39,305 nt of DNA from IMG/VR virus record IMGVR_UViG_2706794689_000009, one strand, 5' to 3'. Of this stretch, positions 9,496-37,377 are shown in pieces (within the stretch, counting starts at the first letter, position 1; each line of letters begins with the position of its first letter). Below the pieces are notes generated by a model that saw only the letters and a program-made list of their open reading frames with translations, had not been told where the DNA came from and made no database searches. Position numbers and translations under genes: made by a program. This stretch comes from a virus (taxonomy: Duplodnaviria; Heunggongvirae; Uroviricota; Caudoviricetes).

Positions 9496-10018
9496 ATGAA
9501 TCGCGCTTCCCTGATTACCTTAATACATGTCGCAAAACGCGATCTACAGCTTGACCATGATACCTATACATCCGCGCTGCTGGCAGCCACCGGCAAATCC
9601 AGTTGCCGTGATATGTCACCCGGTGAGTTATCCCGCGTGCTGGATGTTTTCAAAAAACGCGGTTTTAAAGTGCGTCAGANNNNNNNNNNNNNNNNNNNNN
9701 NNNNNNNNNNNNNNNNNNNNNNNNNNNNNNNNNNNNNNNNNNNNNNNNNNNNNNNNNNNNNNNNNNNNNNNNNNNNNNNNNNNNNNNNNNNNNNNNNNNN
9801 NNNNNNNNNNNNNNNNNNNNNNNNNNNNNNNNNNNNNNNNNNNNNNNNNNNNNNNNNNNNNNNNNNNNNNNNNNNNNNNNNNNNNNNNNNNNNNNNNNNN
9901 NNNNNNNNNNNNNNNNNNNNNNNNNNNNNNNNTGCTGGCAGCCCTGGATATGTCGGAACGTGCAGTGATGAGTTATGAGCGTGTTTGCAGGCTGTATGAA
10001 AAATCATTCCCCCGTTAA
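9496..10018 (+). CDS. gemA: GemA-like early regulatory protein, interrupted by N-mask 9680-9932
   Basis: N-terminus MNRASLITLIHVAKRDLQLDHDTYTSALL...LSRVLDVFKKRGF fits the Mu gp16/GemA family. A C-terminal piece after the mask ends at 10018. Frame continuity across the mask cannot be verified. Confidence 0.55.
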
Positions 10019-10023
10019 CCCCA

Positions 10024-10052
10024 AATCCCGCCACAGCGCGGGATTTTTATTT
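10024..10052 (+). terminator. Intrinsic terminator-like hairpin AATCCCGC-cacag-GCGGGATT plus T-run
   Basis: Perfect 8-bp stem followed by TTTTATTTT, immediately after the gemA stop and before mor. Confidence 0.55.
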
Positions 10053-10088
10053 TAAACTTGCCCTGTGTAATGATGACCGGAGGCGGGT

Positions 10089-10337
10089 ATGGCTGAAACA
10101 CAGATGAGCATGTTTGGTGACAGCGAACAGCTGCACGCGCTGATTGACCGTCTGGATGATATTCCTGATGATGAGCTGAAAAAGAACTGGCCCGGCACGC
10201 TGCGGGACCTGGTTGATGTGATCAGTGCTGAACTGCACCGTCAGGGGATTGAACCTGCTCAGGCGGGAATGCTTGCCCGTAAGGTTGCAGCCGCACAGGC
10301 CGGGTACATGGGCGGGCGTGGTTATTATCTCCCGGTC
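10089..10337 (+). CDS. mor: Mor-like middle operon regulator (3' end inside N-mask)
   Basis: MAETQMSMFGDSEQLHALIDRLDDIPDDELKKNWPGTLRDLVDVISAELHRQGIEPAQAGMLARKVAAAQAGYMGGRGYYLP parallels the Mu Mor N-terminal and dimerisation region. The C-terminal HTH would fall in the masked bases. Confidence 0.7.
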
Positions 10338-10597
10338 NNNNNNNNNNNNNNNNNNNNNNNNNNNNNNNNNNNNNNNNNNNNNNNNNNNNNNNNNNNNNNN
10401 NNNNNNNNNNNNNNNNNNNNNNNNNNNNNNNNNNNNNNNNNNNNNNNNNNNNNNNNNNNNNNNNNNNNNNNNNNNNNNNNNNNNNNNNNNNNNNNNNNNN
10501 NNNNNNNNNNNNNNNNNNNNNNNNNNNNNNNNNNNNNNNNNNNNNNNNNNNNNNNNNNNNNNNNNNNNNNNNNNNNNNNNNNNNNNNNNNNNNNNNN

Positions 10598-11094
10598 CAA
10601 AACTCCCCGCACCCCTGCGTAAAAAGCTGATTGCCCTTGTTCTGGCCGGAGCCGGGACGTTCACCATTGCCACGCACTACACCGGCTACTGGGAAGGGAA
10701 AGAAAACACCACGTACATTGATCCCACCGGCACCCCCACCATCTGTTACGGCCATACCGGCCCGGATGTGAAACCGGGGATGACAAAAACTGATGAAGAG
10801 TGTCTGGAGCTGCTGGAAAAGGACATGAAATGGGCCTTTGCGGCTATCGATCGTCATGTTCAGGTGCCGCTTACCCGTGGTCAGACGGTGGCGCTGGCCT
10901 CCTGGATTTTCTGGGCCGGTGAAACGAACTTTCGCAACTCCACGCTCCTGCGCCTTATCAATGCCGGGCAGATGCCCGCGTCCTGTAAGCAGTATATCCG
11001 CTGGATTTATTCAAAGGGGGTAAAACTCCCCGGTCTTGAGGCCCGCCGTTCGGCGGATGAATGGTTATGTCGTTACGATTTGCCGAAAGTCTGA
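10598..11094 (+). CDS. lys: Endolysin, phage lysozyme (GH24-like) with N-terminal signal-anchor (SAR type); start inside N-mask
   Basis: Visible translation KLPAPLRKKLIALVLAGAGTFTIATHYTGYWEGKENTTYIDPTGTPTICYGHTGPDV...VPLTRGQTVALASWIF co-linear with Mu endolysin. Gly/Ala-rich weakly hydrophobic N-terminal helix. Confidence 0.85.
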
Positions 11095-11167
11095 ACCGCT
11101 TCTGGCGACCGCTCATGATTGCGCTGCTGTGTGCCGTTGTGCTGCTGCGGGGTGTGCTGTGTCTGCG

Positions 11168-11557
11168 GTGAACAATCCCTTACCGGCCCTGATTGCCGGA
11201 GGCTGTATGGCGGCGCTGGGGGTGATGAGCGTGCTGGCTGCCGTGGTATGGGGAATGCACCAGAAGACGCAGCGCCTTGAGGACAATAATCATGTGCTTG
11301 TGCGTGAACGGGACGAAGCCCGTCTGGTGCTGGCAAACCAGCAACGCACCCTGCAACTCATTTCACAAATCAGCAAGGCGGCCACGAATGAAAAACAGCA
11401 GAACATGCAGCACAGCGAGGAACAGCAGAGCATTGTCCGCCGGTCACTGGCAACGGTGCCTGCTGCCGCTGTGCCTGTGCCTGATGATGTGGCTGACCGG
11501 GTGCGGCGGGCCGTCTGTGAAATACGTGCCGGTGAAGCCGGTGCCGATCCCCGCTGA
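11168..11557 (+). CDS. Rz-like inner-membrane spanin (start uncertain)
   Basis: Frame 11036-11557 contains one TM segment LPALIAGGCMAALGVMSVLAAVVWG followed by a charged coiled-coil-like region. GTG 11168 places the TM near the N-terminus; upstream ATGs would overlap the endolysin. Confidence 0.55.
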   Translation: MNNPLPALIAGGCMAALGVMSVLAAVVWGMHQKTQRLEDNNHVLVRERDEARLVLANQQRTLQLISQISKAATNEKQQNMQHSEEQQSIVRRSLATVPAAAVPVPDDVADRVRRAVCEIRAGEAGADPR

Positions 11558-11759
11558 ATGGCTGGCTGACTGCCTGGTCCCTCCCGCGCCGCAGCCGTTC
11601 ACGTTTGGTGCATCGGTCACTTACAACCTGCAACTGCTGGCGGTGATTAAAAACTGCAACGTGGACAAGGCCAGCATCCGCCGTCTGGAGACACAGCGAC
11701 AGCATGAATTTACTGATATGGCCGGAACGACTGCTGTTCCGGCAGGAAAGACGAAGTAA
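11388..11759 (+). CDS. Rz1-like outer-membrane lipoprotein spanin, overlapped architecture (start uncertain)
   Basis: Alternate frame inside and beyond Rz carries a lipobox LTGC followed by a proline-rich mature region PSVKYVPVKPVPIPAEW...PPAPQP. Confidence 0.5.
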   Translation: MKNSRTCSTARNSRALSAGHWQRCLLPLCLCLMMWLTGCGGPSVKYVPVKPVPIPAEWLADCLVPPAPQPFTFGASVTYNLQLLAVIKNCNVDKASIRRLETQRQHEFTDMAGTTAVPAGKTK

Positions 11760-11769
11760 GGAAAAAGGT

Positions 11770-11997
11770 ATGGATGATTCAGATTGTGCTCAGGCAGTCA
11801 TGGAGCGTGCAACAGAACGCGCCCTTTGTGACCGGCTGACACGTAAGCGCCGGGTGGCGGAGACACCGGGCAGGCGTGTATGCGCGGACTGCGGGGGTGA
11901 CATTCCGGCTGCCCGTCTGGTTGCCGTGCCGGATGCCATCCGTTGTGTGAACTGCCAGAACATCATGGAGGCCGGTCATGTGGGTCAGCATCGTTAA
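11770..11997 (+). CDS. TraR/DksA-family C4 zinc-finger protein
   Basis: MDDSDCAQAVMERATERALCDRLT...CADCGGDIPAARLVAVPDAIRCVNCQ: CxxC-(17)-CxxC arrangement typical of phage TraR-like proteins. AGGAAAAAGG ribosome-binding site before the ATG. Confidence 0.6.
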   Translation: MDDSDCAQAVMERATERALCDRLTRKRRVAETPGRRVCADCGGDIPAARLVAVPDAIRCVNCQNIMEAGHVGQHR

Positions 11998-12289
11998 AGA
12001 TTATGTCGTGCCGATCCTGTCGGCAACGGCCACAGCCGGGGGGATCTTCATGGCGCTGATGCGCAAAACCTTTGTCCCCCGCGAGGCCTTTGAAAAACTC
12101 TCCGACCGGGTTGAGCGGGTGGAGAGCCGGATTTCCGGCCTGCCCACGCAGCAGGAGGTGAACAGACTCAATATCGAAATCACCACCCTGCGCGGTGAGC
12201 TTAAGGCCACCAATGCCACCCTGAAATCCGTCTCCCATCAGAACGAACTGCTGCTGGAGCAGGCTGTAAGGAAAAAACACAATGAGTGA
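11978..12289 (+). CDS. Small membrane protein with coiled-coil (Mu gp25 position; possibly the SAR-endolysin releasin)
   Basis: 103 aa with N-terminal TM VVPILSATATAGGIFMALM, then a coiled-coil. Lies after the lysis genes as in Mu. Function inferred from position only. Confidence 0.45.
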   Translation: MWVSIVKDYVVPILSATATAGGIFMALMRKTFVPREAFEKLSDRVERVESRISGLPTQQEVNRLNIEITTLRGELKATNATLKSVSHQNELLLEQAVRKKHNE

Positions 12290-13166: not shown

Positions 13167-13415
13167 ATGGCAACAGATAACCGCTCACTGATGAGCAGTG
13201 CCCATCAGAAAGCATTCAGTCTTGCAACACAGTTACCTCCTGAAACCATAAAGGTATGTCGTGAGTTGACTGAACTCAGCATTGCCGGGGAAATATCCCT
13301 GGAACAACTGCATTCGCTGCTGGCAGAGGCTGCCACTGATGAGTTGAGCGGCGTGGACGTGATGACTGAAGAGCTTGAGTCCCGAATCAAAAGCATTCTG
13401 ACAGGTAAAGCATGA
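13167..13415 (+). CDS. Mini-protein sharing the C-terminal motif of the preceding gp27-like protein
   Basis: 82 aa, strong AGGAGGTG ribosome-binding site. Its C-terminus ATDELSGVDVMTEELESRIKSILTGKA parallels VTDELRGVDGMSEQIEFRIRQMLLGKA at the end of 12575-13156. Confidence 0.5.
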   Translation: MATDNRSLMSSAHQKAFSLATQLPPETIKVCRELTELSIAGEISLEQLHSLLAEAATDELSGVDVMTEELESRIKSILTGKA

Positions 13416-17984: not shown

Positions 17985-18064
17985 GGTCAGTGGCGGGGGT
18001 CGAACCCGCATACATGATCCACCCGGAGGCAGGCACCGACTTTACCAGTTAAGCGTACACTGAC
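17985..18064 (-). other. tRNA-like element: perfect 7-bp acceptor stem and canonical T-arm; D and anticodon arms do not fold canonically by eye
   Basis: Minus-strand read GTCAGTG-TA-...-GCGGG-TTCGACC-CCCGC-CACTGAC-C: a 7-bp acceptor pairing, U8-A9, and a 5-bp T-stem with TTCGA T-loop. The internal 48 nt gave no clean D or anticodon stem on manual folding. Confidence 0.3.
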
Positions 18065-19889: not shown

Positions 19890-20836
19890 TGCCTACCCCG
19901 ATTACACCGGCGATGATCACCGCCCTGATGACGGGCTACCGTTCTGATTTTCAGGCCGGGATGTCCATGGCTCCGTCGCAGTACCAGAAAATTGCGATGA
20001 CCGTGCCGTCCACCTCGAAATCCAACACCTACGGCTGGCTGGGGCAGTTCCCGCAGTTCCGTGAGTGGATCGGCTCCCGCGTCATCGAGAAGATGAAAGC
20101 CTATGGCTACGCCATCGTGAACAAAACCTTTGAAGGCACCGTTGCCATTAGCCGCGATGACTTTGAAGACGACAATCTCGGCATCTACTCCCCGTTATTC
20201 CAGGAAATGGGTCGTGCCGCTGCGGCACAACCGGATGAACTGGTCTTTGCTGCACTGCGTGATGGTCTGAATGCGGCCTGCTATGACGGCCAGAACTTCT
20301 TTGATACCGAACACCCTGTTTACCCCAAAGTGGATGGCTCCGGTGATGCACAGATGGTCAGCAATATGTTTGTGGCAAAAACCGGCTCTGTCGGTGCACA
20401 GGCGGATTACAGCGGCCCGGCCTGGTATCTGCTTGACTGCTCCCGCGCGGTAAAACCGCTGATTTATCAGGATCGCCGCAAAGCCGAACTGGTTGCCCAG
20501 ACAAAAGTCGATGAAGGCCGTGCGTTTACTGATAACGAGTTTGTGTTCGGTGCTTCCGCCCGTCGCAATGTGGGCTACGGCTTCTGGCAGATGGCCTACA
20601 TGATGCAGTCACCGCTGACGCTGGATGCGCTGTGGCACGGCTGGTCAGCCATGCGTGACTTTAAGGCTGACGGTGGCCGCAAACTCGGCATCAAACCCAC
20701 CCATATTGTTGTCCCCACCTCGCTGGAAAAACAGGCGGTGCAGCTGCTGGAGCGCGAGCTGTTCGCAGACGGTAACGCCACAGTCTCTAACGAGATGAAG
20801 GGCAAGCTGGAGCTGGTTGTCGCGGATTATCTGTAA
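19889..20836 (+). CDS. Major head subunit (Mu T-like)
   Basis: 315 aa. Start overlaps the upstream stop. Position and size match Mu T. Confidence 0.8.
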   Translation: MPTPITPAMITALMTGYRSDFQAGMSMAPSQYQKIAMTVPSTSKSNTYGWLGQFPQFREWIGSRVIEKMKAYGYAIVNKTFEGTVAISRDDFEDDNLGIYSPLFQEMGRAAAAQPDELVFAALRDGLNAACYDGQNFFDTEHPVYPKVDGSGDAQMVSNMFVAKTGSVGAQADYSGPAWYLLDCSRAVKPLIYQDRRKAELVAQTKVDEGRAFTDNEFVFGASARRNVGYGFWQMAYMMQSPLTLDALWHGWSAMRDFKADGGRKLGIKPTHIVVPTSLEKQAVQLLERELFADGNATVSNEMKGKLELVVADYL

Positions 20837-34705: not shown

Positions 34706-36760
34706 ATGTCAGACTCCAAGTGGAAAATGCTCTCCGCCATGCCCGGAGAGTTTTCAGTCAAGGTTGCCGGTGGCACGGTGGCATTTATTGAAAGCCCTTT
34801 CCGCCCTTCGGGTAATAAAGGGGGGATCACCTTCGCAGACTGCGTGATCCGCTTCAGCACGAAAGAGCCATTATGGGTAATGCCGGTATCCGGTAATCCC
34901 AGTGCAGAAATCACCAGTTCAGGCGTGACTGGCATCATTCCAATCACATCTGACGTGGCCGGAACGCTCACGCCCTCCGACTGGAATGCACCGGATAACG
35001 CCGGGCCTTCCGGTAGCACGAATGGCAGCAGTTCAGAGCCGGAATATTACTTTGTTGTCATTCTCGCGGGTCAGTCAAATGGCATGGCCTACGGCGAGGG
35101 GCTGCCGTTACCGGATTCGTTTGACCGCCCGGACCCACGCATTAAGCAACTGGCACGCCGCAGTACGGTAACGCCCAACGGTACGTCGTGTACATACAAC
35201 GACATCATTCCGGCAGACCACTGCCTGCATGATGTTCAGGATATGAGCGGGATAAACCACCCGAAAGCTGATCTGGCAAAAGGCCAGTACGGGACTGTCG
35301 GTCAGGGGTTGCATATTGCCAAAAAACTGCTTCCCTATATCCCACAGAATGCCGGGATACTTCTGGTGCCCTGTTGTCGTGGCGGGTCAGCATTCACCAC
35401 TGGAGCCGACGGCTCATTCAGTGAGGCCAGCGGTGCTTCCGCTGATTCTTCACGCTGGGGGGCCGGTAAACCTCTGTATCAGGACCTGGTAAGCCGCACC
35501 AAAGTCGCGCTGGCGAAAAACCCGAAAAACAAACTTCTGGCTGTGGTCTGGATGCAGGGAGAGGCAGACCTTGCCTCAGGAAGCCAGCAGCATAATAGTT
35601 TATTCACGGCCATGGTTCAGCAGTTCAGAACTGACCTGGCTCCGCTTGCTGCGCAGTGCGTGAGTGGAAATGCCACCACGGTGCCGTGGATTTGCGGTGA
35701 TACCACGTATTACTGGAAAAACGCTGGCACCGATAAATATGAGGCAGTATACGGTGGCTACAAAGGCAAGGAAGCACAGAAAATTTTCTTTGTACCGTTC
35801 CTGACGGATGAGAATGGACAGAGCACGCCAACGAATGCTCCGGCGGAAGACCCGGATATTGTGGCTGTCGGGTATTACGGTGCAGCATCCCGAACCCAGG
35901 GCAGTTTTGTTTCGACACAGCGTGACAGCCATTTCAGCTCATGGGCACGCAGGGGCGTCATTTCAGACCGTCTGGCCTCAGCTATTATGCTCCATGCAGG
36001 GCGCACGGCTGAACTGATGCGTGGGCAGACCGTGACACCACCGGATGAGAAGCCGTCACCTGATACACCATCAAAACCGTCCACGCCACCCGCAGACACC
36101 ACGACGATGAGTACGCTATTTGCTTACCGGGCATCTGAGTCTGAAGGACGGTTGACACCACAGGGTTGGGCTGCCGGAGGTGGCAAGGCTCAAATCGTGG
36201 ATGATGCCGGAGCCAGCGGGGGTAAGGCAATGAAACTGACCAAGGAAACAGGAAGAGCCCCCTGGTACCTTGAGCATGATGCTGGTAATGGTGCGGACCT
36301 GCTGGGTAAAGGTGGTCTTGTCAGTTGTCGTTTTAAACTCGATGGCGCGCTTACGGCTAATCAGTACGCACTGGCGCTGTACTGGCCGGTTTCTGCCCTG
36401 CCGCAAGGGGTTACTCTGGAAGGAAATGCCGGTCATAACCTGCTGGCATCGTTCTACGTACAGAGCGATGCCACAGACCTTAACGTGATGTATCACAAAG
36501 GAAACACGGCGCAGAACACGAAGCTGGGGTCATTCGGCGCATTTAATAACGAATGGCATACGCTGGGCTTCCGTTTTGCCGGTAACAACAGTATTGAGGT
36601 GACGCCGGTCATTGATGGTAAGGACGGGACACCATTCATGCTGTCGCAGTCTCCGGTCGGCACGTTTACGGCAGACAAGTTGCGCGTGACCGATATCACT
36701 AAAAATGCGACTTACCCGGTACTGATTGACAGTATCGTGGTGGAAGTGAATAACGCGTAA
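34706..36760 (+). CDS. Putative SGNH/SASA-family esterase (sialate O-acetylesterase-like) with Pro/Thr/Ser linker and C-terminal beta-rich domain
   Basis: 684 aa. Motif VVILAGQSNGMAYGEG (GQSN block of the SASA/SGNH fold), linker PPDEKPSPDTPSKPSTPPADTTT, then a roughly 220-aa C-terminal domain. Not part of the Mu backbone. Confidence 0.55.
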   Translation: MSDSKWKMLSAMPGEFSVKVAGGTVAFIESPFRPSGNKGGITFADCVIRFSTKEPLWVMPVSGNPSAEITSSGVTGIIPITSDVAGTLTPSDWNAPDNAGPSGSTNGSSSEPEYYFVVILAGQSNGMAYGEGLPLPDSFDRPDPRIKQLARRSTVTPNGTSCTYNDIIPADHCLHDVQDMSGINHPKADLAKGQYGTVGQGLHIAKKLLPYIPQNAGILLVPCCRGGSAFTTGADGSFSEASGASADSSRWGAGKPLYQDLVSRTKVALAKNPKNKLLAVVWMQGEADLASGSQQHNSLFTAMVQQFRTDLAPLAAQCVSGNATTVPWICGDTTYYWKNAGTDKYEAVYGGYKGKEAQKIFFVPFLTDENGQSTPTNAPAEDPDIVAVGYYGAASRTQGSFVSTQRDSHFSSWARRGVISDRLASAIMLHAGRTAELMRGQTVTPPDEKPSPDTPSKPSTPPADTTTMSTLFAYRASESEGRLTPQGWAAGGGKAQIVDDAGASGGKAMKLTKETGRAPWYLEHDAGNGADLLGKGGLVSCRFKLDGALTANQYALALYWPVSALPQGVTLEGNAGHNLLASFYVQSDATDLNVMYHKGNTAQNTKLGSFGAFNNEWHTLGFRFAGNNSIEVTPVIDGKDGTPFMLSQSPVGTFTADKLRVTDITKNATYPVLIDSIVVEVNNA

Positions 36761-36776
36761 GCAGGATAAAAAAATG

Positions 36777-36809
36777 CCGCCGGTAAGGGAAAACAAGAAA
36801 CCGGCGGCA
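36777..36809. terminator. GC-rich hairpin GCCGCCGG-(17 nt)-CCGGCGGC flanked by an A-run on plus and a T-run on minus
   Basis: 8-bp perfect stem immediately after the esterase stop. A U-tract follows only in minus orientation, so it is probably a minus-strand or bidirectional terminator. Confidence 0.4.
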
Positions 36810-36904
36810 AAAAGATCGTTATATCCAAAGCAAAAAATGCAGTGCACCTTTTTACCTAACAGATATTACCGGTGTCAACACCATGTCAATAATTGGGAGG
36901 GATA

Positions 36905-37087
36905 ATGACATTTTTACAGCTTATTTTATTGTATTTCTGCACGGCAGTATGTGCGTTATATCTGGTGAGTGGTGGTTATAAGGCCATCAGAAATTATGTT
37001 CGCCGCAAAATTGAGGACGCAGCAGCTGAAAAACTCAGTAAAACAGCGCAGGTAACTCCGCTCCCAAAAGACCCGACCCAGCCCTGA
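36905..37087 (+). CDS. Small single-pass membrane protein (about 60 aa)
   Basis: GGGAGGG ribosome-binding site then ATG. TM helix FLQLILLYFCTAVCALYLV followed by a basic tail. Confidence 0.4.
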   Translation: MTFLQLILLYFCTAVCALYLVSGGYKAIRNYVRRKIEDAAAEKLSKTAQVTPLPKDPTQP

Positions 37088-37122
37088 TTGCAGGGCTTTA
37101 TTCCCGCATAAGGAGGATATAC

Positions 37123-37377
37123 ATGCCAGAAATTAAAGGCACCGTCACTGAAGACCTGGTAAAACAGGCACTGTATTCCGGTGAAGTAAATAAGTTGCTG
37201 AAAGCGCAGGTCCGCAAGGATTTTGAGGCACAAATCGACACTTACGTTGATGAAGTGCTGGCAAAACTTATTGGGCCAGCAGTTGCGGCCAGTGATGCTG
37301 ATAATGAGCCGAAAACCGACGCGCAGCCAGAGCAACCAGACCCGGCTCAGCCCGGAACTGACAGTACCATGATGTAA
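37123..37377 (+). CDS. Small acidic protein (84 aa)
   Basis: Near-consensus TAAGGAGGA Shine-Dalgarno 7 nt before the ATG. Helical N-terminus, acidic Pro-rich tail. Confidence 0.45.
   Translation: MPEIKGTVTEDLVKQALYSGEVNKLLKAQVRKDFEAQIDTYVDEVLAKLIGPAVAASDADNEPKTDAQPEQPDPAQPGTDSTMM

Follow-up and report, generated by a model that had tools for sequence, protein, structure and literature searches.

How does a transposable phage lyse its host when no holin gene is apparent? The question is raised by the lysis region of the IMG/VR virus record IMGVR_UViG_2706794689_000009, a stretch of 39,305 nucleotides (nt) hereafter called the window. In gene content, this 39.3-kb window is a complete Mu-like transposable prophage. 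A preliminary description, made from the sequence letters, had seen in it a lysis cassette composed of an endolysin of the signal-anchor-release (SAR) type, overlapped spanins, a TraR-like protein, and a small transmembrane (TM) protein, without an obvious holin. The cassette (10594-12289, all genes on the + strand) corresponds gene for gene to genes 22-25 of phage Mu. It is a Mu-type lysis system, of the kind already published for the Mu lysis genes 22, 23, 23.1, 24, and 25 (Chamblee et al. 2022, mBio, PMC9239132; GenBank AF083977). By analogy with Mu, it is probably the late lysis module of a Mu-like prophage that would work as in Mu, without a holin. New relative to Mu is a conserved, mostly unannotated open reading frame (ORF) of 36 codons for a membrane peptide, located between the lysozyme and spanin genes. 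This "micro-ORF" had been missed in the preliminary description.

The Endolysin and the Releasin Homologue

The lysozyme harbors the catalytic triad E-x8-D-x5-T, made of E34 (10693-10695), D43, and T49. Its visible part begins at 10600, in frame, and its ATG is located 4 nt inside a masked run according to 50 relatives, the start at 10594 being counted from the right flank of the mask. The N-terminus reads MPKLPAPLRKK, followed by LIALVLAGAGTFTIATHY. Four basic residues (K3, R9, K10, and K11) precede the SAR segment, which spans residues 12-29 (nt 10627-10680). The mean Kyte-Doolittle hydropathy over the 19 residues 12-30 is 1.39, compared to a usual value of 1.6, and 10 of these 19 residues are Gly, Ala, Ser, or Thr. 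A crude sum of Hessa free energies amounts to +3.3 kcal/mol for this segment, against +0.8 for phage 21 R and +7.5 for Mu gp22, both of which are proven SAR domains.

The best solved structure for the lysozyme is that of the full-length R protein of phage 21 (PDB ID: 3HDE, E 3e-25), which is co-linear from residue 5 and through the SAR region. Mu gp22 shares 39% identity with the lysozyme and aligns from residue 1. The catalytic Glu34 stands only 4 residues past the hydrophobic segment, and likewise E35 in phage 21 R and E37 in Mu gp22. The SAR assignment made in the preliminary description is therefore well founded, the weakly hydrophobic, Gly/Ala/Ser/Thr-rich N-terminus being co-linear with those of two proven SAR endolysins. 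This homology disfavors cleavage and argues that the N-terminus would act as a SAR domain rather than as a signal peptide removed by signal peptidase. Furthermore, the dibasic motif next to the TM domain (TMD) is kept in four genera, as LRKKL (including Citrobacter and Salmonella) or as LRKRL (Serratia). In Mu gp22, the adjacent K6 and K7 at the equivalent position confer dependence on the "releasin", the product of gene 25 (PMC9239132).

The small TM protein closing the cassette had been noticed earlier for standing in the position of the Mu releasin. It is a true homologue of gp25, belonging to the DUF2730 family and sharing 33% identity with the Mu protein (BLASTP, E 1e-17). Its N-terminal TMD (residues 9-28, Kyte-Doolittle 1.80) is followed by R29-K30, which are aligned with R26-R27 of gp25; releasins have been described as carrying RR or RK where the membrane meets the cytoplasm (PMC9239132). 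According to the positive-inside rule, the protein would adopt an N-out/C-in topology, its tail forming a cytoplasmic coiled coil. Its gene is the fourth annotated gene after the endolysin gene lys, or the fifth when the micro-ORF is counted, in a prophage where transposase A/B, GemA, Mor, and com/mom are present. Homologues of gp26 (63% identity) and gp27 (56%) come after it, as in Mu. In the latter phage, lysis no longer occurs on time once gene 25 is deleted, and heterologous SAR endolysins are also released with the help of gp25 (PMC9239132).

Table 1. Features of the lysis region, in window coordinates (aa, amino acids).
Feature	Position	Strand	Family matches and remarks
Mor/C-family late transcription activator	10089..10511	+	PF08765 Mor (E 5e-10) on the visible 83 aa; 3' half masked
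Activator-lys spacer, fully masked	10512..10593	+	71 nt in relatives; sequence read from L001 and 49 others
SAR-type GH24 endolysin, 166 aa	10594..11094	+	PF00959 (E 1e-36); phrog_7 endolysin
Micro-ORF, 36 codons, MVMSLRFAESLNRFWRPLMIALLCAVVLLRGVLCLR	11061..11171	+	Predicted TMD at residues 17-35; no RefSeq annotation
i-spanin (Rz-like), 132 aa	11159..11557, GTG start	+	phrog_214 Rz-like spanin (E 1.5e-29)
o-spanin (Rz1/LysC-like) lipoprotein precursor, 123 aa	11388..11759, ATG start	+	PF23793 LysC (E 4e-17); phrog_3001/456
TraR/DksA-family C4 zinc-finger protein, 75 aa	11770..11997	+	PF01258; TIGR02419; phrog_54
DUF2730 protein, 103 aa, Mu releasin gp25 homologue	11978..12289	+	PF10805 (E 1e-22, residues 6-97); phrog_736

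The Spanin Pair

The i-spanin is composed of an N-terminal TMD (residues 11-30, mean Kyte-Doolittle 2.2) and a helical periplasmic domain. Its homologues carry PF10828 (DUF2570), and it shares 24% identity with Mu gp23 (E 8e-6). The GTG start lines up with the ATG start of the Citrobacter, Salmonella, and Serratia genes. A longer i-spanin of 166 aa beginning at ATG 11057, proposed by some gene callers, is rejected: its frame meets a stop in Serratia and displays a ratio of nonsynonymous to synonymous differences (pN/pS) of 2.4, and the alignment of GTG 11159 with the ATG of the three other genera also disfavors it.

The o-spanin displays the features of a two-component spanin, namely an LTGC lipobox with Cys39 (11502-11504), a Gly and hence no Asp at position +2, and a small Pro-rich mature protein. 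It is 44% identical to Mu gp23.1. The lipobox is kept as LTGC or LTAC in four genera, and the MKN/MRSN start is kept in Citrobacter and Salmonella. The o-spanin gene shares the final 170 nt of the i-spanin gene in another reading frame and continues for 202 nt past the i-spanin stop. This agrees with the earlier view of an overlapped rather than embedded pair, for which an extension of about 200 nt had been given. The "overlapped" spanin class is reportedly that of Summer et al. 2007. The start chosen by PGAP, GTG 11517 (L001 3597-3839), is rejected, being downstream of the lipobox Cys; it must be an annotation error, the annotated protein having no lipoprotein signal. TTG 11433 is a possible alternative to the ATG at 11388. 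The PGAP start of the o-spanin and the omission of the micro-ORF affect hundreds of E. coli genome annotations.

Masked Bases and the Holin Question

The bases preceding lys are masked in the window. The 260 N at 10338-10597 stand for 249 nt in each of the 50 relatives whose flanks are near-identical; there, the interval consists of the final 57 codons of the activator gene, a spacer of 71 nt, and the lysozyme start, ATGC. Another run of 253 N at 9680-9932 exceeds the sequence of the relatives (~243 nt) by 10 nt and, read literally, breaks the gemA/gp16 frame. Because each run surpasses by ~10-11 nt the stretch found in its place in all close relatives, the lengths of the N-runs, as well as coordinates and frames across the masks, should not be trusted. 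The end of the activator gene at 10511 results from counting from the left flank, with the gene length of the relatives (140 aa). The full 140-aa activator of relative L001 is 40% identical to Mu C, and its 57-codon tail is kept in the 50 relatives.

Beyond these 57 codons, the masked interval has space for only ~71-82 nt. A holin hidden under the mask, a possibility that the preliminary description had itself raised, is contradicted by the relatives, which show there the activator tail, a short spacer, and the lysozyme ATG only. No ORF of at least 25 aa with a hydrophobic 17-mer was found on either strand within 450 nt upstream of lys among 57 loci (23 distinct sequences). Among all annotated coding sequences of a near-identical, unmasked prophage, convincing TM segments are displayed only by the i-spanin, the DUF2730, and the DUF1378 proteins, together with the o-spanin signal peptide, and a few borderline single hydrophobic stretches are found in larger proteins. 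No protein with 2-3 TMDs was seen in this set, nor any equivalent of Mu gp19 or gp20. The earlier claim that no classical holin is visible thus extends to the relatives. "No holin" is to be qualified as "no classical holin", however, because an unrecognised ORF with a single TMD sits within the cassette.

In the activator-lys spacer, neither a sigma-70-like promoter nor an ORF was found. The absence of such a promoter fits an activator-dependent late promoter, and the masked spacer is presumed to be the equivalent of Plys, the C-dependent promoter annotated at the equivalent position in Mu (GenBank AF083977). The window prophage possesses one Mor/C-family gene, compared to the two genes Mor and C of Mu, and is devoid of counterparts to the Mu middle genes 18-20, all of which points to an early-to-late switch simpler than in Mu. 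A terminator-like hairpin with a T-run is located at 10034-10057, between gemA and the sole Mor/C-family gene.

A 36-Codon ORF between lys and the i-Spanin Gene

The micro-ORF overlaps lys by 34 nt and the i-spanin gene by 13 nt, and its remaining 64 nt overlap no other gene. The relatives fetched amount to 34 IMG/VR and Citrobacter loci and 16 metagenome contigs, together with the Salmonella and Serratia loci. The micro-ORF is exactly 36 codons long in all of them, with the exception of one (L028) carrying a 1-nt insertion upstream. The peptide of the window shares 61% identity with that of Serratia, compared to 55% for the lysozyme and 45% for the i-spanin. In Serratia, no frame other than the micro-ORF stays open across the lys-spanin spacer from a start codon upstream of it, the extended i-spanin frame being stopped after its ATG. 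The 64 nt are 73-75% identical across genera, a value equal to or higher than that of the flanking coding sequence. Within these 64 nt, and in the closer set of relatives, the variable sites are distributed as 11/6/15 over codon positions 1/2/3, and the pN/pS is 0.43, versus 2.4 and 0.97 in the other frames. Furthermore, all 19 distinct replacements observed in residues 17-35 are membrane-compatible, a crude null being ~7e-5 if independence is assumed. An RNA element was considered for the spacer and rejected, since no Rfam match was found and the predicted fold is no better than those of shuffled sequences (z = +0.78).

Other features are less favorable to a coding function. The micro-ORF has a weak Shine-Dalgarno sequence (-3 to -5 kcal/mol), the ribosome-binding site of the i-spanin (GGGGTG) lies inside it and explains part of its conservation, and the pN/pS is ~1 in the most distant pairs, a noisy value obtained from very few sites. 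The peptide has no match in Pfam, PHROG, or NCBIfam, and homology to Mu gp19 or gp20 was considered and rejected, no similarity being found. RefSeq/PGAP omits the micro-ORF, which is called only sporadically, as an "uncharacterised protein", in a few Shigella sonnei records. A scan of metagenome contigs with a degenerate DNA pattern returned 16 matches, all of the Escherichia type; in the search for more lineages of the micro-ORF, genome contigs yielded one Citrobacter locus, and the phage collection only two Mu-like inserts in Shiga toxin (Stx) phages.

Judging from these sequence features, the micro-ORF is likely translated. Its position and hydrophobic segment are compatible with a small membrane protein of the lysis cassette, with the reservation of the weak Shine-Dalgarno. 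It departs from known holins in that it ends 1 residue after the TMD, has no charged C-terminal domain, and matches no holin family. That it might be a tail-anchored micro-protein and an unrecognised component of releasin-type lysis, acting as a timer or antagonist of SAR release or as a depolarising or holin-like peptide, is a tentative and rather doubtful proposal. If true, such a role would bear on what times lysis in the absence of a holin.

In the IMG/VR contig 2526164665_000023 (L028, 3468-3576), the 1-nt insertion (AAAG to AAAAG) stands just before the lys stop and fuses the lysozyme in frame to the micro-ORF, which would yield a lysozyme with a C-terminal TM anchor. This fusion is either a sequencing error or a natural variant or mutation. 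The idea of a programmed frameshift from lys into the micro-ORF, which comes from this fusion, is rejected, as no slippery heptamer is present.

Proposed Course of Lysis and Alternative Explanations

Gene content, gene order, homology, and motifs are observed directly, and each functional step of the following course is drawn from homology, synteny, and motifs. The single Mor/C-family activator would switch on a promoter in the masked spacer. The lysozyme would be exported by Sec in an inactive form, tethered to the inner membrane via its weakly hydrophobic SAR helix, which the R9-K10-K11 cluster would lock at the cytoplasmic edge. The DUF2730 releasin, predicted to be a membrane protein of type I whose coiled coil is cytoplasmic, would promote the exit of the SAR helix. 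The freed lysozyme would refold and degrade the peptidoglycan, and the i-spanin/o-spanin complex would then disrupt the outer membrane. The TraR-like protein, presumably co-transcribed, would most likely act on the host RNA polymerase and not on the envelope.

Several observations weigh against this Mu-like course. Between the window and Serratia, the DUF2730 protein is 80% conserved and the lysozyme only 55%, which is not expected of a partner-specific interaction. A DUF2730 protein stands beside a non-SAR endolysin in Klebsiella phage Kp4866-3, and DUF2730 proteins next to non-SAR endolysins have also been reported elsewhere (PMC9239132); because of this association, the family may have another or broader role. 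The micro-ORF, an extra conserved TM element that Mu does not possess, could also supply a membrane-acting function. The first of these points lead to an explanation in which the SAR lysozyme would release spontaneously at a basal rate, as SAR endolysins do, and DUF2730 would serve a different role tied to its conserved neighbours, the gp26 winged-helix protein and the gp27 small terminase, such as one in packaging or in late regulation. Its gene indeed always adjoins those of gp26 and gp27, even in phages with a non-SAR endolysin, and its product is the most conserved protein of the cassette. This explanation is unlikely, as it sits poorly with the loss of timely lysis in the Mu gene 25 deletion and with the action of gp25 on heterologous SAR endolysins (PMC9239132); the window protein shares with gp25 its TMD, its RK motif, and a significant similarity, and the lysozyme retains the dibasic "lock" that makes Mu gp22 releasin-dependent.

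The micro-ORF opens another route, where the 36-aa tail-anchored peptide would be a minimal holin or a pinholin-like or depolarising peptide that triggers SAR release and so determines when lysis occurs, or else an inhibitor or timer of release, DUF2730 being an accessory. Its constant length of 36 codons in three deep lineages, its being the sole open frame through the Serratia spacer, its coding-type substitution pattern with hydrophobic replacements only, and the high nucleotide conservation of the spacer are all in favor of this route, as is its location within the late lysis operon between endolysin and spanin genes, where Mu has no counterpart. It is nevertheless improbable: besides the weak Shine-Dalgarno, the conservation owed in part to the embedded i-spanin signal, the pN/pS of the distant pairs, and the lack of any family match, the single-TMD peptide is oriented N-in and does not possess the charged C-terminal tail typical of holins, and depolarisation delays lysis in Mu and does not trigger it (PMC9239132). 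Least probable is an ordinary, cleavable Sec signal peptide giving a soluble and immediately active lysozyme, the timing of lysis then depending on late transcription only. Small residues at A18-G19-A20 and I25-A26-T27 do satisfy the -3/-1 rule, and one homologue in a phage record (APSE-8) is annotated "sig_peptide". Similar small-residue motifs, however, are found in two SAR proteins shown by experiment to stay uncleaved, phage 21 R and Mu gp22, whose SAR segments align with that of the lysozyme and whose catalytic Glu is just as close to the membrane segment. A secreted lysozyme that is constitutively active would, in addition, leave a conserved releasin homologue pointless.

The TraR-like Protein

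The presence of a TraR-like protein in the cassette, as first described, is substantiated by a score of 69.6 bits against TIGR02419 (cut-off 59.7) and by a full-length alignment with the F-plasmid TraR (PDB ID: 5W1S, E 4e-4), in which the MDDSD stretch falls on residues 2-6 of F TraR. The protein possesses four zinc-binding Cys (C38, C41, C59, and C62) and an acidic N-terminus. It occupies the position of Mu gp24, which shares the CxxC-17-CxxC spacing and is weakly aligned to its zinc ribbon (hhalign probability 54%). It is probably a binder of the RNA polymerase secondary channel, and not an envelope or lysis protein. A longer ORF starting at ATG 11704 is rejected: its conserved N-terminal peptide is explained by the overlap with the conserved C-terminus of the o-spanin, the alignment begins at residue 2 of the 75-aa form, and an AAGGA motif is found before 11770.

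In Klebsiella phage Kp4866-3 (L098, 2278-2791), a TraR-like gene is located directly before the DUF2730 gene, and the endolysin is of another, non-SAR type; the TraR-like gene is, for this reason, a conserved passenger of the operon. The two genes are adjacent and slightly overlapping in distant Mu-like phages (L098, L099/L101), whatever the endolysin type, and this linkage might point to a shared function.

Prophage Context and Distribution of the Lineage

In the window, genes for a repressor, transposase A and B, gam, gemA (gp16), one Mor/C-family activator, and lysis come before gp26-gp27, then the genes for terminase, portal, head, and contractile tail, and then an invertible tail-fibre segment and com/mom. 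Between the genes of the gp27-like small terminase and of the large terminase, an 82-aa ORF (13167-13415, + strand; phrog_30922, of unknown function) has no equivalent in Mu. With 53% identity between its last 30 residues and the C-terminus of the gp27-like protein, it resembles a partially duplicated tail of the small terminase. Before com/mom, at the right end, a block of three genes (34706-37377, + strand) encodes DUF6645 (684 aa), DUF1378 (60 aa, single TMD), and DUF826 proteins; apart from those of the lysis cassette, the DUF1378 protein is the sole small TM protein of the prophage. In lambdoid/Stx phages (e.g., PhiR5_1, L102), this block is found directly upstream of the holin gene S; here, it stands without a holin. 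In the near-identical prophage L003, PGAP has annotated a "tRNA-OTHER" at 19985-20064, between the head-morphogenesis and virion-morphogenesis genes (~17985-18064 of the window, - strand). ARAGORN found no tRNA in the window, this site included.

The lysis region is 99.2% identical to those of prophages from several E. coli chromosomes. Relatives of the prophage are present in 231 of the 5426 complete E. coli genomes (~4%), O157:H7 strains included, most of them at ~89-90% identity, and the lineage is also found in Citrobacter, Salmonella, and Serratia. Sp18, the sole Mu-like prophage of strain Sakai, has been described as apparently intact (PMC2669165), and we infer that it is a member of this lineage. 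In the phage collection, no isolated phage of the lineage was found, the Mu-like inserts within the two Stx phages mentioned above being the sole matches.

Comparison with Known Systems

The closest solved structures to the lysozyme are those of phage 21 R and of RrrD from DLP12 (PDB IDs: 3HDE, 3HDF, and 4ZPU), with which it shares an aligned SAR segment and the E-D-T triad. As in these proteins, no Cys is found in its SAR segment. The absence of Cys in this segment goes with activation by refolding, as for R21, and not with the disulfide mechanism of P1 Lyz; the refolding type of activation is therefore expected of the window lysozyme. In contrast, phage 21, with its S21 pinholin, and related cassettes (e.g., L039 and APSE-3) possess a pinholin gene directly upstream of the endolysin, where the window has the activator gene and a short spacer. 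The spanins resemble LysB/LysC of phage P2 in that the o-spanin starts inside the i-spanin gene in another frame, ends beyond it, and belongs to the LysC Pfam family, whereas the window i-spanin is of the DUF2570/Mu gp23 type and the phage context is another one. The TraR-like protein shares with F-plasmid TraR (PDB IDs: 5W1S and 6N57) its alignable full length, four zinc-binding Cys, and an acidic N-terminus (MDDSD versus MSDEAD), although its gene lies inside a late lysis/packaging operon of a transposable phage.

Phage Mu itself is the nearest system. The gene order C, 22, 23, 23.1, 24, 25, 26, 27 and the orientation of the re-annotated Mu genome are those of the window. Both phages possess a SAR GH24 endolysin with a dibasic motif before the TMD, an o-spanin with an LTGC lipobox and a 202-nt extension past the i-spanin stop, a CxxC...CxxC protein between the spanins and the releasin, and a DUF2730 releasin, without a holin. 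The cassette proteins, however, are only 24-44% identical. Mu gp24 is a divergent zinc ribbon assigned to another PHROG, whereas the window harbors a bona fide TraR-family protein. Mu middle genes 18-20, among them those of the TM proteins gp19 and gp20, have no equivalents in the window, which has one Mor/C-family gene. Holin-less, releasin-dependent lysis has been studied by experiment in a single example, to which the window adds a widespread and well-conserved lineage of enterobacteria. The variation within this lineage, with an RKK or RKR lock, an RK junction motif, and a DUF2730 protein better conserved than its lysozyme, provides a comparative set for the action of releasins.

The other difference concerns the junction of genes 22 and 23, which overlap directly in Mu and are separated in the window by the 64-nt spacer with its 36-codon TM micro-ORF, the only element that could change the picture of Mu-type lysis here. 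The nearest architectural analogue of the micro-ORF product is Mu gp20, a 39-aa, N-in/C-out protein with a single TMD; both have a short positive N-terminus and a TMD reaching to the C-terminus. There is no detectable similarity between them, and gp20 is encoded by a middle gene upstream of C that is dispensable for lysis, whereas the micro-ORF belongs to the late operon, where it lies between lys and the spanins. Should the micro-ORF be expressed and influence lysis, the Mu-type system would comprise one more membrane component, either lost by Mu or never present in it.

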